A stretch of 42,938 nucleotides of DNA from a virus (lineage: Duplodnaviria; Heunggongvirae; Uroviricota; Caudoviricetes), in IMG/VR virus record IMGVR_UViG_2541047938_000003, positions 1 through 42,938 of that record. One strand, written 5' to 3'. The notes under the pieces were generated by a model, which saw only the letters and a list, made by a program, of their open reading frames with translations, did not search any database and was not told where the DNA came from. Position numbers and translations under genes: made by a program. Below are positions 5,846 to 19,092 of this stretch, piece after piece. Each line of letters starts with the position of its first letter. Position 1 is the first letter of the stretch.

Positions 5846-6043
5846 TTACTGCTGCGCGATGGATTTCGCCGGGAACTCGCCGTTGCGGATGATGCTTTCT
5901 ACCGGCCAGCACTCAGCTGACACTTTCTGCTCTGTAGCTGCCAGGCTGCATTCCTGCTGGCTGTCGTAAACGCCGAGAATGACATCCTGATAATCACCGT
6001 TGGTCATTGCCACGGTCAGGACGAGTGCGAATAAAGTTTCCAT
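5846..6043 (-). CDS. Small protein with N-terminal hydrophobic segment (likely start at internal Met)
   Basis: ATG at 6043 preceded by GGGAGGA; METLFALVLTVAMTNG... looks like a signal peptide or TM helix; 66 aa. Confidence 0.45.
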   Translation of the reverse strand: METLFALVLTVAMTNGDYQDVILGVYDSQQECSLAATEQKVSAECWPVESIIRNGEFPAKSIAQQ

Positions 6044-6171
6044 CAGTGAAGAGTCCTCCCGATGGCGACGGCGTAAAGGCGTTTTGCTTCTTCCCACGCC
6101 GGAGCATTGCGATGGAGCACCGCGAACGACGCGAGCCGTTGGGCCTCTCTGATCTGCTGCTGGTTTACCAT
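6043..6171 (-). CDS. Small hypothetical ORF (42 aa), not in the supplied track
   Basis: ATG at 6171 preceded by GAGGAA; stop overlaps the ATG at 6043 (TGATG); MVNQQQIREAQRLASFAVLHRNAPAWEEAKRLYAVAIGRTLH. Confidence 0.3.
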   Translation of the reverse strand: MVNQQQIREAQRLASFAVLHRNAPAWEEAKRLYAVAIGRTLH

Positions 6172-6503
6172 GATTTCCTCTTGGCCTTATCGCGGCGAAC
6201 GGAACGGTTAATACAAGACTTCAACGCATTTATTCAGTGTTTCAATGGGCGGTGGATGGCCGCCGGTTGTCATAAATGGGCAGACTCGAAAATCTGCCTA
6301 TGTATGGCCGATAAAAAACCCGCCGGAGCGGGTCATTCATTCTTTGGTATGCCGCAAAGGGCGTTTAGCGTTTCAACGGGAATGGCAAGTGCGGTGCTGG
6401 TCGCTTCACGGCGTTCCACCTCAGGCAAATATGGCACTGCCTCAGGCCACATCTCAGCCAGTTTTTTAACAGTTGAGACTTTGGTTAGAGCACCTTTAAC
6501 CTG

Positions 6504-7001
6504 CTATTGGAAGGCATCAACTTCATCGTAAAGAACGTTGATGGTTACCGTCGATTCAGTGAGTCGGTCGTGTAATTTTCCAACTTTCTTCAGCGTGCTG
6601 TAACTTTCAGGAACGAAACCCGAATCAATTACAGGCGCGAAGGAAGCTCCGAAGAACAGGTCGCTTTCAAGATCGTGCTTACCAATATGTTTTCCACGGT
6701 GGCGATAGCGATGATCCAAACCGTTCCTGGCTAATTCGTGATACTCACCATTAATAATGACCTTTAAAATTGCAGTTTTAGCGCCGACCTGCATCTTGAT
6801 GAAGGAGTTATCTTTGAAATCTTCCCGAGCCTTAGTTATTTGCTCATCGCTAGTGTTTTCCTGCTTGAGCAATGCCTGTCGAATTTCTTCAACAATTTTC
6901 GCCCTCTCATTAACCGCAGCTTTCGCTTTCTCAAACAATGGGGATGCGAGAAGCAGGTTATGGCATAGCTGATTTTTAATTTCGTTGTTAAGACGAATCA
7001 T
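6504..7001 (-). CDS. Hypothetical accessory protein, first ORF of the leftward early operon
   Basis: 165 aa; AT-rich by eye relative to flanks; contains RYRHRGKH (Rx4H-like). Not arginine-rich, so not N-like. Confidence 0.5.
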   Translation of the reverse strand: MIRLNNEIKNQLCHNLLLASPLFEKAKAAVNERAKIVEEIRQALLKQENTSDEQITKAREDFKDNSFIKMQVGAKTAILKVIINGEYHELARNGLDHRYRHRGKHIGKHDLESDLFFGASFAPVIDSGFVPESYSTLKKVGKLHDRLTESTVTINVLYDEVDAFQ

Positions 7002-7419
7002 TGACTTACCCTCTGTCGTTACCCGCTGATGCGGGAGAAATGCTTTGGCGATGTGGTAGGTGGGAGACCCATTTCGACCCGATTCGGCCTACTTATCTTC
7101 GGCAATAGCTCCTCGGGCCTCGCCGCTTTACGTGCGACATATTCCCGTCCATGAACCCTTCACCACATCCCATAACATTCCCTGTATTGGTCAGCGCCAA
7201 CTCCCTGCCAGTGTTGCCCGTTCTCACGCCGTTCTCGCTCTCGCGCGGGGATACTCTCTCACCGACCGGATCGCACCCGGTGATACAGCACGTTTACGTG
7301 TAGGGGTCTTAACAGGTCATTGACGCTGTAAATCTGCATGTTGTTAAAAAGCAGGCGACTTGCTGTCCGCCGCTGGCTAACTTCGCTCAGCTGTCGATGT
7401 TTCGTTTCGATGGGGTAAA

Positions 7420-7494
7420 TTTAGCGTGATGCTAAATTATGCGCAATAGCAAAATGCTAAATTGTTGAATGGTTTTATTTAGCGTATTGATTAA
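7420..7494. promoter_or_regulatory. OL-like operator cluster: three 17-bp sites of form TTTAGC-N5-GCTAAA
   Basis: 7420-7436 TTTAGCGTGATGCTAAA (perfect palindrome), 7445-7461 AATAGCAAAATGCTAAA, 7478-7494 TTTAGCGTATTGATTAA; same motif recurs right of the repressor gene. Confidence 0.55.
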
Positions 7495-7533
7495 TAAGCG
7501 ATTAAAAATTTACAGCGAAGGAATTCGGGACGT

Positions 7534-7557
7534 AAAAAAGCCCGCGCGATGGCGGGC
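7534..7557 (-). terminator. Rho-independent terminator downstream of the repressor gene
   Basis: Stem GCCCGC/GCGGGC (7540-7545 / 7552-7557) with 6-nt loop, followed on the minus strand by a six-T run. Confidence 0.6.
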
Positions 7558-7577
7558 TTGAGGGGTTTTGCGTGAGG

Positions 7578-8255
7578 TTATGGGATGTTTAGTATTTTGG
7601 CATCAACCACAACGCCGATGATTTTGCAGTTTCCATTAATTTCTAGCATTGGATATGCGGGGTTAAGGGGCTTTAGGAAGCGTCTGCCGGCATCGATTAC
7701 AAGCTTCTTAAAGGTCGCTTCGTTATCGCCTTCTAGCTTCGCGACAACCAGCTTTCCGTTGCGCGGCTCGACTTCAGGATCAACAAGTATCGCTGCTCCC
7801 TCGGGTATGCTCAGTCCAGCCGGGGAGGTCATAGAATCCCCTTTAACGTCCAGCCAGAATGAATCTTCTGAGCAGTCAACAGTCGTGTCATACCAGCGAT
7901 CTATCGCTCTTCGGTGATAAGGTTCTACAGCTTCCATCCATTGCCCCGCGCTTACCCAGCTGATTACAGGATAACTTCCTTTTGTCTCGTTCAGTCCTCG
8001 AAATGCAACGTTCGAAGGTTCTTCACTGGCGTGTAAAACATCCATCCAGCCAAAAGGCAGATCAAGCGCAGTTTCAATTTTGCGAGCCATCTTATCGCCG
8101 ATATTGCGATGAGGGTTTGGTCCCAGTAGCTGACTAAGCGCAGCCGGACTTGTCTCGATGAGCTCGGCAAACTGCGCTTTGGTCATTCCAGACTCGTGCT
8201 GACGCTTCTCGTACAGCGCTTCCAGGTTGGCTTTTCTGATTTCTTTATTTTCCAT
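7578..8255 (-). CDS. cI: cI-like repressor (HTH plus S24 LexA-type autopeptidase domain)
   Basis: Start set at ATG 8255 (MENKEIRK...); HTH region QFAELIETSPAALSQL; S24 motifs GDSM and VVAKL; operator repeats on both sides. Confidence 0.85.
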   Translation of the reverse strand: MENKEIRKANLEALYEKRQHESGMTKAQFAELIETSPAALSQLLGPNPHRNIGDKMARKIETALDLPFGWMDVLHASEEPSNVAFRGLNETKGSYPVISWVSAGQWMEAVEPYHRRAIDRWYDTTVDCSEDSFWLDVKGDSMTSPAGLSIPEGAAILVDPEVEPRNGKLVVAKLEGDNEATFKKLVIDAGRRFLKPLNPAYPMLEINGNCKIIGVVVDAKILNIP

Positions 8256-8273
8256 ACCTGCATTGTTACTGCT

Positions 8274-8339
8274 TTTAGCAAAATGATAAATGTGCAAATT
8301 GCTAAATGATGCTTGCGTAGTATTTAGCATAACGCTAAA
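8274..8339. promoter_or_regulatory. OR-like operators and candidate rightward promoter
   Basis: 8274-8290 TTTAGCAAAATGATAAA; 8323-8339 TTTAGCATAACGCTAAA (perfect palindrome); candidate promoter TTGCGT (8313-8318) - 17 nt - TAAACT (8336-8341) overlapping the operator. Confidence 0.5.
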
Positions 8340-8371
8340 CTCCAAATCAAACGACTCACCCGGAGACACCA

Positions 8372-8605
8372 ATGAGCACTGAACTACACCGCTGGCGCAA
8401 GGCCGCCACTACCGACGAATGGGCGCAGCTCGCAAAGTTGGCTAACACGACGCCAGGTTACCTGGACCAGATCGCCTACGGAAATCGCCGGGCATCTCCA
8501 GAAATGGCATCTGCTATCGAGAAAGGCACGAAGAATTTTCACCGCCAGGCTCCGGTCCTAAAAGAAAGCCTGGTATTCGCATCGCCGCGTGATACTGCGG
8601 CCTAA
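8372..8605 (+). CDS. Cro/YdaS-like small HTH regulator
   Basis: 77 aa, divergent from the repressor; GGAG RBS; HTH-like WAQLAKLANTTPGYLDQIAYG. Confidence 0.6.
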   Translation: MSTELHRWRKAATTDEWAQLAKLANTTPGYLDQIAYGNRRASPEMASAIEKGTKNFHRQAPVLKESLVFASPRDTAA

Positions 8606-8622
8606 CCACGAAAGGGAAAGCA

Positions 8623-9165
8623 ATGCATTCACTTGCGTATCAACACAATACCGGAATACACCCGGGAGCGATGATAAACCGCGCTCAAGCTAAAGCGACG
8701 CCGGACCACGAAAAGATCCGCGATGCGGTCCGTGCCTGGTCATCGGCGCTGGATAATCAGGACGTGGTGTCAGCGCTGATCATCAACGAATACCGGGAGC
8801 AGGGCGGGACCGCCATCAGCTTTCCGGACGACATCAGCCGGGCGCGCCAGAAGCTGTTCCGCTTCCTGGATAACCGCTTCGACTCTGAGCAGTACCGCGA
8901 GAACGTGCGCCAGCTGACGCCCGCAATCATGGCCGTTTTGCCGCTGGAGTATCGCCATCGACTTCTTCCAGAGGACAGTTTTATGTCCCGCTTAGCTCGA
9001 CTTGAGAAAGAAACGAGCGAGGCGAAAGTGGCCGTTGCGATGAACGCCCCGCGTCACCAGAAGCTCAAGGAACTCAGTGAGGGGATTGTAGAGATGTTCC
9101 GTGTCGACCCGGATCTGACCGCGCCGCTGATGGCTATGGTCACTTCGATGTTGGGGGTTATGTGA
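8623..9165 (+). CDS. CII-position regulatory protein (possibly YdaT-like)
   Basis: 180 aa directly after the cro-like gene; family assignment is a memory-based guess. Confidence 0.4.
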   Translation: MHSLAYQHNTGIHPGAMINRAQAKATPDHEKIRDAVRAWSSALDNQDVVSALIINEYREQGGTAISFPDDISRARQKLFRFLDNRFDSEQYRENVRQLTPAIMAVLPLEYRHRLLPEDSFMSRLARLEKETSEAKVAVAMNAPRHQKLKELSEGIVEMFRVDPDLTAPLMAMVTSMLGVM

Positions 9166-17605: not shown

Positions 17606-17671
17606 ATAGCATATATTTCATGTAAATCTGATATCGTCGCCATAGCTTCGTAGGTCGACAAAGAATTAAGA

Positions 17672-17696
17672 GCCTCGCCATCGTGCGGGGCTTTTT
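17672..17696 (+). terminator. Rho-independent terminator (candidate tR'-like)
   Basis: GCCTCGC-CATCGT-GCGGGGC stem (one G-U pair) followed by TTTTT. Confidence 0.55.
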
Positions 17697-17703
17697 CATT
17701 TCA

Positions 17704-17778
17704 GGGTCAGAAGCACAGCGGTTGTGCGTTCGGCTGTTAACCGAATGGTCGAAGGTTCGAATCCTTCCTGTCCCGCCA
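17704..17778 (+). tRNA. tRNA-Asn-like gene (anticodon GUU), phage-encoded
   Basis: Hand-folded cloverleaf: D-stem GCAC/GTGC, anticodon stem TTCGG/CCGAA with loop CTGTTAA, T-arm GAAGG-TTCGAAT-CCTTC, 3' GCCA; one U-U mismatch in acceptor stem. Confidence 0.55.
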
Positions 17779-18239: not shown

Positions 18240-18656
18240 GCTGCGCGTCAGAGGTTCGATTCCTTTGCCCGCTCCAGTAAAAGCTTTCCAGTCTGCGATG
18301 ATGGGTTCCCCGGAGTGACTGGAAAGCGACCTGGTTTTGAATGGGCGCTGCTTTTTGCAAAATTGCTGTGTGAAAATACTGACCTTTGGGTTCAGCGCTC
18401 ATCCAAAAGCATCACGTGAATTCACCAACGCTCATGTACTCTCCAGGAAACAATAAGTGATTCTGAAAAGTTCCGGTTAGATATTGCCCCGGTCACCGGA
18501 TGATTTTATCTTTTGGTTCGTGGTGAATCCCCCTATGCGGCGGGGCGTCCAGTCAAACTTTTTTGTCCAGGTTTGTTTGCGCGGAACTAGTCGGCTGGGG
18601 CTGTTCCACCGGGAGGCACCCGGCGCCACCTCCTTGACGGTATTGTTATTTTTCAT

Positions 18657-18683
18657 GCCTGTTCGTCCGAGCAGGCTTTTTTT
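18657..18683 (+). terminator. Candidate rho-independent terminator
   Basis: GCCTG-(10 nt loop)-CAGGC followed by seven T; short stem so moderate. Confidence 0.4.
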
Positions 18684-19092
18684 GCCCGCATTATCTTCAT
18701 TGAAAACTGGCAACTCAGAGAATCATCCAAATTAAAAAAGCAGCAACGAGAGCGATTACTAATACATTCTTCGCTTTTTCTCTTCTGCTGGCCTTCACAA
18801 AAGGATTCACTATCCGGCAGTGGCTACACACAAGTGATTCTGGGTTAATTAACTTTCCGCAGTAGGGGCAGGGCTTGATAATCATTGGTACTAATTAAGT
18901 TGTGAGAACGTAGTCTCATTTAACCACATTTATCGAGTTGTTTTACTAATGGTCTAGTTATTTCAGACATATTCATCAATTTCAGGCTCACGGGAATCAT
19001 CCGCTACGTGCTTTGTTGATAAATCCAGCCCGTGAAGCCTGACCCTTTTCAAACACACACACAGCGCCATCCGAAAAATCGGAGGTGAGGCT

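Follow-up and report, generated by a model that had tools for sequence, protein, structure and literature searches.

Introduction

Early antitermination in lambdoid phages has the N protein with its boxB RNA as the textbook case and the put RNA as the exception; put of the HK022 type acts through the beta' zinc-binding domain. Antitermination in ribosomal RNA (rrn) operons, which uses Nus factors and SuhB, needs no phage protein, and host NusB/NusE are loaded at boxA in the rrn and lambda systems alike. A recognizable N is missing from many sequenced lambdoid phages, and we know of no account of how their early operons pass terminators. The put RNA is about 70 nucleotides (nt) long, has two stem-loops and no boxA, is Nus-independent, and is present as putL plus putR (PMC9378689). 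The locus described here lies at positions 7002-7533 of IMG/VR virus record IMGVR_UViG_2541047938_000003 (Caudoviricetes), a 42,938-nt stretch that was analyzed at full length and is called the window. On its minus strand, a boxA precedes a 141-nt multi-helix RNA domain, and the two together are a candidate nut-type cis antitermination signal in which the large domain stands in place of boxB and host Nus factors probably take part. Judged from anatomy and genomic context, this reading has a probability of roughly 0.55.

Results

The candidate signal compared with described systems

The window prophage is an Escherichia coli lambdoid whose positions 6400-8645 are 99.9% identical to strain PEC422. 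The parts of the candidate signal are located as follows.

7354-7371, minus: hairpin GGCG-ACAGCAAGU-CGCC, directly 5' of boxA, in the boxB-boxA order of rrn
7341-7353, minus: boxA, UGCUUUUUAACAA, which departs from the rrn boxA UGCUCUUUAACAA at one position; the nutL boxA of the phage phi80 annotation
7189-7329, minus: 141-nt multi-helix RNA domain, defined by RNAalifold and pair counts, beginning 11 nt past boxA
7320-7328 with 7192-7200, minus: helix P0
7311-7316 with 7204-7209, minus: helix P1
7303-7305 with 7217-7219, minus: helix P2
7297-7300 with 7289-7292, minus: helix P3, the phi80 'nutL core'
7274-7288 with 7254-7268, minus: helix P4, nearly invariant
7243-7248 with 7229-7238, minus: helix P5, with a GAGA loop

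The order of elements in the lambda nutL/N leader (pL, boxA, a hairpin region, a GGGGUGUG-type long stem, the first gene, and a terminator) recurs at this locus, and the flanks of the long stem can be aligned between the two. They differ at the position of boxB, where lambda has a 15-nt hairpin and the window leader has the junctioned domain, and the domain model finds no match in the lambda locus. The window boxA is nearer the rrn consensus than is that of lambda. A near-consensus boxA upstream of a hairpin is present as in nut sites, but the window has no recognizable cognate N gene and no paired R site, and its possible boxB counterpart, P3, is embedded in a larger fold and is not a simple boxB. 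The E. coli rrn leader resembles the locus in its near-identical, consensus-like boxA with a hairpin before it and in a long-range RNase III-type stem downstream, but it has no counterpart of the 141-nt domain.

Like the put RNAs of HK022 and HK639, the window element would be a cis-acting structured RNA just past pL in a lambdoid phage without N. HK639 has the same pL and the same first ~50 nt of transcript, followed by an annotated putL-like RNA that replaces boxA and the domain. The window element differs from put in having six helices in 141 nt, in occurring as a single copy, and in being always accompanied by boxA, and there is no detectable homology between the two. Assignment as put by homology was therefore rejected, since the domain model finds nothing in the HK639 locus and the architecture differs. 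An earlier note on this DNA had proposed an antitermination element that was either nut-like or put-like; the nut-like half of that proposal agrees with the phi80 nutL annotation, the boxA, and the covarying domain, and the put-like half, taken as homology, is not supported, given the single copy and the covariance-model search, which misses HK639 putL. As read from its sequence, the element appears to be a nut-type signal with a large conserved RNA domain for boxB, coupled to an rRNA-grade boxA.

Conservation of boxA and covariation in the domain

A boxA with no more than two mismatches to the rrn core GCUCUUUAACAA lies 25-31 nt upstream of helix P1 in 99 of 100 distinct relatives. The exact core is found in 17 of the 100, six of which have the full UGCUCUUUAACAA, and phage APSE-2, a locus outside the 100, also has the rrn boxA, as UGCUCUUUAACAA(UUUA). 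In the phi80-like and PA2/P13374-type leaders examined, as in those of rrn, boxA has a small hairpin ahead of it; in PA2/P13374 the GGCG/CGCC stem is kept and the loop is different.

RNAalifold was applied to 23 representative sequences and recovered P1 to P4; P0 and P5 were added by inspection. The comparative structure is preferred because the single-sequence minimum-free-energy fold mispairs P2 and P3. Folding of the minus-strand transcript gave single-sequence z-scores of -2.6 to -2.7. In the 23 representatives, standard pairs occupy 92.3% of cells versus 33-41% in controls that slide the 3' partners by 1-3 columns, double changes occur in 18 of 40 pairs versus 2-7 in the same controls, and none of 500 column shuffles reached the observed pairing values. 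A larger alignment of 59 distinct sequences, which was made to the covariance model and leans to that model by construction, has 95.8% of cells paired versus 32-42% when slid and 19 pairs with double changes. The sequences fall in few classes, so cell counts overstate independent events, and pair counts, pair types, and slid controls are the safer measures. These comparisons bear out the impression in the earlier note that the segment is structured, and they show it to be conserved among related phages as RNA helices, with compensatory substitutions and indels that are not triplets. Indels of 1, 2, 7, and 9 nt were seen in the leader.

Covariation is strong in P0, P1, P3, P4, and P5. Compensated pairs in P1 are CCUGUU/GGCAGG and ACUGUU/GGCAGU, with GUAAC/GUUAC in the Edwardsiella phage Edno5, and those in P3 are CACG/CGUG, CGCA/UGCG, and CACA/UGUG. 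The P4 stem appears as CACCGG/UCGGUG, CAUCGG/UCGAUG, and CACCAG/UUGGUG, with CGCCAA/UUGGCG in APSE-2, and P5 as CGC/GCG, CCC/GGG, CAC/GUG, and UUC/GAA. P3 (7289-7300) is a covarying 4-bp hairpin inside the six-helix domain, and its A-rich loops vary in length and sequence. Near-invariant positions comprise the apical part of P4 (GG-YG-CGAUC-CG-G) and the junction strands UAGACCCC, GAGAGNUA, and YGUGAGAACGGGCAACAC; this conservation of the P4 tip and junctions speaks for a specific tertiary fold or a binding surface, not for generic structure. Mutual information for tertiary contacts is dominated by the 3-4 sequence classes and gave one tentative extra pair, U7251-A7224. The divergent APSE-2 copy scores 88 bits, and compensatory changes have rebuilt both its P4 stem and its P5 stem. 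This copy lacks P0, and therefore the core of the domain is P1 to P5.

The covariance model of the domain (R1) scores 160.8 bits at its own position, and the next best match in the 43-kb window scores 12 bits. No match to the model was found in the phi80 pR region, HK639, HK97, a 933W-like phage, or lambda. Rfam 15 has no family that reaches its gathering score in the leader, and the best match in a permissive search of 6950-7600 (E up to 10) is bxd_1, inside the leader, at E = 0.14, far under its gathering score. The sole internal minus-strand terminator-like site is the weak hairpin at 7354-7371, which the terminator scan flags only because boxA provides the U-run. In view of these two results, the suggestion in the earlier note of a small regulatory RNA is not supported for a free-standing gene. 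The domain sequence was not found in the papers searched, and those consulted on Stx phages and mEp phages do not address the element.

A leader held in common with phi80

The remainder of the leader and the gene that follows it contain these features.

7441-7446, minus: pL -35, TTGCGC, by alignment to the annotated phi80 pL
7419-7424, minus: pL -10, CTAAAT, by the same alignment
near 7411, minus: inferred pL start, by the same alignment
7372-7411, minus: 'segment A', the transcript 5' end with small hairpins, common to phi80, HK225, KO-TP1, and the put-using HK639
7034-7182, minus: long-range duplex (5' strand 7161-7182, 3' strand 7034-7062) that encloses a variable insert
7002-7035, minus: hairpin CCCGC-AUCA-GCGGG (7022-7035) and Shine-Dalgarno sequence GAGGG (7009-7013) ahead of the ATG at 7001
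6333-7001, minus: first early-left gene, Nmad5 family, phrog_1965
6317-6334, minus: intrinsic terminator GACCCGC-UCCG-GCGGGUU then UUUUA, at the end and stop codon of the first gene and at the position of lambda/phi80 tL1

From pL to the first early-left ATG (7001) the leader measures about 410 nt. Its largest minus-strand open reading frames (ORFs) encode 44, 28, and 26 amino acids, and its G+C fraction is 0.54-0.59 over 7000-7400 versus 0.39-0.48 in the flanks. A long, GC-rich gap between the left operators (OL) and the first minus-strand ORF, as the earlier note had it, is indeed there, and the region is the untranslated stretch at the head of the early-left (pL) operon in an E. coli prophage related to phi80. 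The adjective 'unusually' in that note does not stand. The phi80 records used were GenBank M11919, X13065, and JX871397, and because window 6997-7418 is 99.1% identical over 422 nt to the phi80 pL-to-N leader, the long leader is normal for the phi80 lineage and is an exchangeable unit with recombination joints at the promoter and the start codon.

The boxA-plus-domain segment is 100% identical to phi80, and the window agrees with phi80 in the placement of the promoter, boxA, the 'core' hairpin, the long stem, and the Shine-Dalgarno sequence. Homology runs from the pL -10 to five bases into the N gene. Beyond these limits the two differ: phi80 has N (98 amino acids) at the start codon, followed by terminators tL1A and tL1B, whereas the window encodes an Nmad5-family protein there, and the operators and immunity region of phi80 are not those of the window. 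In JX871397 the 'nutL boxA' is UGCUUUUUA, equal to window 7345-7353, and the 'nutL core' hairpin is CACGUAAACGUG, equal to window 7289-7300, so that the genome annotation marks a 9-nt boxA and a 12-nt core and not the six-helix domain. The 278-nt 'nutL regulatory signal' of M11919 corresponds to window 7113-7390 and takes in boxA and the whole domain. None of the annotated records examined labels the element beyond the 9-nt boxA and 12-nt core of phi80.

Alignment shows that the leader is modular, with separate segments common to different sets of phages; the earlier note had recognized neither this nor how widespread the leader is. The first ~40 nt of the transcript are common to phi80, HK225, Klebsiella phage KO-TP1, and HK639. 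From boxA to ~7190 the sequence is found in phi80, HK225, KO-TP1, and ~100 Stx2a-converting phages of PA2/P13374 (O104:H4) type. Segment 7037-7190 occurs in phi80 and the PA2 type, and the HK97 N leader and those of 933W-like Stx phages match it at ~85-91% identity.

The long-range duplex has at least 20 bp and a fold z-score of -2.71, and its 5' strand carries a boxC-like GGGAUGUGGUG. It forms in 30 of 30 distinct variants examined, with 19-27 outer pairs around an insert that ranges from a 5-nt loop to ~200 nt, and its inner pairs covary (GUGUGGUG/CACCACAC, GAUUGGAUG/CAUCCAAUC, GGUGC/GCACC). The flanks of the stem align with lambda GGGGUGUGUG...CACACACCACCAAAG, which we take to be the RNase III site of the N leader that includes boxC, and also with the HK97 and 933W N leaders. 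The ~43 nt ahead of the ATG also stand before genes unrelated to one another in phi80, KO-TP1, HK639, and Enterobacter phages, and the hairpin with its Shine-Dalgarno sequence appears to be a portable translation-initiation module. In HK639 (locus L010; 1810-2007 and 2350-2545), the pL region and putL-like RNA are joined by a second leader-like region, with a long stem and the same ~43-nt module, before the next gene.

Occurrence and genomic context

IMG/VR was scanned with two patterns based on separate parts of the element, and this yielded about 140 related loci that fall in 3-4 sequence classes and are 51-99% identical to the window over the element. Each locus gave one match, 95 from 100 sources (five were element-free controls, all negative) and 45 from the 46 sources of the second set. 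Hosts were taken from phage records and IMG/VR; the domain-bearing viral loci are from Escherichia/Shigella, Klebsiella, Edwardsiella, and Hamiltonella (APSE) and include O104:H4-type Stx2a phages. At megablast sensitivity, 224 of 5,426 complete E. coli genomes, DH5alpha among them, contain the class-1 sequence, which is never annotated. The DH5alpha copy (NZ_CP025520.1, 126790-126961) has a boxA and domain 100% identical to those of the window and presumably lies in the phi80dlacZ remnant.

The annotated relatives examined were phi80, HK225, KO-TP1, PA2, P13374, Edno5, Klebsiella phage ST13-OXA48phi12.2, and APSE-2. In every one the element heads the early-left operon on the transcribed strand, and where the repressor gene is in view the element comes after that gene and pL. 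In APSE-2 the element heads the recombination genes, and the region upstream is cut off by the end of the record. In 74 of 93 distinct loci a stringent same-strand terminator follows within 3 kb, in most cases 0.25-1.5 kb away; the figure for the opposite strand is 21 of 93. Deposited hypothetical genes overlie the RNA in two records, on the opposite strand at 2493-2927 of Klebsiella phage MK422452 (locus L292) and as several small genes placed over the structured RNA at 2411-2920 of phi346 (locus L005), and these are probably miscalls.

Proteins encoded near the element

The earlier note had seen no N-like gene in the gap, and tblastn with the phi80 N and the HK97/933W N found no homolog anywhere in the 43-kb window. 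The phi80 N forms its own small PHROG of unknown function and is unrelated to lambda N. ORFs within 5 kb downstream of 138 loci were clustered, and no universal family emerged. The commonest cluster occurs in 74 of the 138 loci, and its representative, judged by sequence, looks Kil-like. Proteins similar to phi80 N were found in seven of the 138 loci and proteins similar to HK97 N in two. Among 50 loci with a domain at least 97% identical to that of the window, the first gene of appreciable size belongs to one of at least 15 unrelated clusters. Screens for an arginine-rich motif and for the N C-terminal motif returned mostly out-of-frame ORFs, except in two Edwardsiella phages.

Discussion

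How the element may act can be outlined from its anatomy. Host NusB/NusE would load on boxA, as in the rrn and lambda systems, and the constant boxA argues for Nus involvement. boxA and the domain would stay with the elongating polymerase and confer Rho resistance in the 410-nt untranslated leader, with the domain as the specificity or anchoring part at the place of boxB, a role suggested by its position and by the modular swap in HK639. The polymerase would then be carried past the intrinsic terminator at 6317-6334, and the gam/bet recombination genes would be expressed after induction. By analogy with lambda, the long stem and the start-codon hairpin probably set the processing and translation of the first gene. 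The signal probably works with host factors or with an unrecognized factor and not with a dedicated N, because the prophage has no N gene and the same RNA lies upstream of many unrelated first genes.

Several observations weigh against this interpretation. The antitermination role is deduced from position, boxA, and how the phi80 records are annotated. As the phi80 site is labeled for N utilization, a phage protein may be required and simply escape recognition; N proteins are short and diverse. In the two Edwardsiella phages (Edno5, locus L011, 3187-3507; and locus L048), the second gene encodes an N-like protein of ~105 amino acids with the arginine-rich motif NSRQRRAMRYR and an HK97/933W-N-like C terminus, so co-occurrence of the domain with an N-type protein is possible but rare. 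Neither the 43-kb window, searched with filters off, nor the phi80 pR region nor the ~140 loci yielded a second (nutR-like) copy, and the phi80 genome record annotates no nutR. The P3 loop is variously UAAA, AAAA, AGAAA, CAAA, or AAUG, unlike a boxB tuned to one N. The first gene of the window has a nonsense mutation, and the prophage may be decaying.

A stronger proposal, that boxA plus the domain form a self-sufficient antiterminator RNA needing only host Nus factors and RNA polymerase, is tentative and somewhat doubtful; factor independence is suggested by the absence of a conserved partner. If it is true, put and the N-nut ribonucleoprotein would be joined by a third RNA-based form of processive antitermination. 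Many N-less lambdoid and P22-like phages of Enterobacterales, among them APSE and the O104:H4-type Stx2a phages, would then owe their early-left expression to the element, and the phi80 'N' would be dispensable for it or act by another route. The domain is a concrete, mutable target for the study of N-independent early antitermination, and it corrects gene calls that put hypothetical proteins over it.

The element could instead be an orphan N-dependent nutL, in which the domain binds a phi80-type N that was lost by recombination and the site is a non-functional leftover. The phi80 records do name the site nutL and place N directly downstream, the homology to phi80 does stop at the start codon, and the amber mutation in the first gene hints at decay. 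Against this, a phi80-N-like gene accompanies the RNA in only seven of 138 loci, the helices are kept by compensatory changes across phages of Escherichia, Klebsiella, Edwardsiella, and Hamiltonella, and near-identical RNA stands ahead of at least 15 unrelated first genes. Selection therefore appears to act on the RNA without the phi80 N, and the orphan site is an unlikely explanation.

A post-transcriptional leader is about equally improbable. Here the domain and long stem would control processing by RNase III, stability, or translation, and boxA would be only a shield against Rho, with no processive antitermination. The long-range stem matches the RNase III region of the lambda N leader, the hairpin ahead of the first gene overlaps the approach to the Shine-Dalgarno sequence, and in rRNA operons boxA and Nus factors help long-range RNase III stems to form. 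The would-be target, however, can be exchanged and in many loci is tiny or lacking, the 141-nt domain keeps company with boxA and not with the stem or the start-codon module, and terminators are enriched downstream.

Within its multi-helix junction the domain has invariant unpaired nucleotides, both at the junctions and in the internal and terminal loops of P4, such as folds that bind a ligand or protein typically have; these would suit a sensor RNA, a riboswitch-like or host-protein-binding element that gates early-left expression on a cellular signal. We give this idea only a slim chance: no alternative terminator/antiterminator pairing is evident beside the domain, no riboswitch family of Rfam gives a match at E up to 10, and the link to boxA, which is constant, directs attention to the transcription machinery. 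A coding sequence, whether a decayed or frameshifted N as the earlier note had considered, a small protein, or the 87-amino acid plus-strand ORF at 7060-7323, is hardly credible despite the small hypothetical ORFs called over the region in a few phage records, as the untranslated leader is the same in phi80, whose N is intact, the 87-amino acid ORF has no Pfam or PHROG match, indels are not multiples of three, helix substitutions are compensatory, and the ATG after boxA is not conserved.

Additional features of the locus

The operators, the repressor gene, and the terminator between them complete the locus upstream of the leader.

7418-7494, minus: OL operator cluster and pL, with repeated TTTAGC..GCTAAA dyads
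7538-7559, minus: strong terminator between OL and the cI stop codon, formed by a GC-rich hairpin and a U-run
7578-8255, minus: cI repressor, LexA family

The hairpin at 7538-7559 on the minus strand would end cI transcription just ahead of the operators, and a weak Trp_leader-like Rfam match at the same position reflects that terminator only. A weak Rfam match to the anti-GcvB small RNA AgvB at 7434-7478 on the minus strand, in the operator cluster, scores 18 bits against a gathering score of 56 (E = 0.82) and is most likely due to chance.

The Nmad5 gene of the window has an in-frame amber at codon 166 (6504-6506) that leaves 165 amino acids, compared with 222 in relatives. PEC422 has Leu at position 166 and a 222-amino acid product, and by this comparison the window copy reads as a nonsense mutant. 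Past the terminator at 6317-6334 lie a DUF1482-family ORF, a 323-amino acid ORF, gamL, and bet, and a mirror-image hairpin on the plus strand (6318-6333) was also flagged in the terminator scan. When extended to a GTG, the DUF1482 ORF spans 5846-6097 on the minus strand and begins with the arginine-rich MGRSKTPLRRRHRED, which is superficially N-type; the RefSeq start is an internal Met. This ORF is unlikely to be N, as it lies after the terminator. Elsewhere in the window, Rfam matches at gathering score cluster on the plus strand and comprise the small RNA isrJ, a tRNA, and STnc100 (17621-17694, 17704-17775, and 18495-18687).

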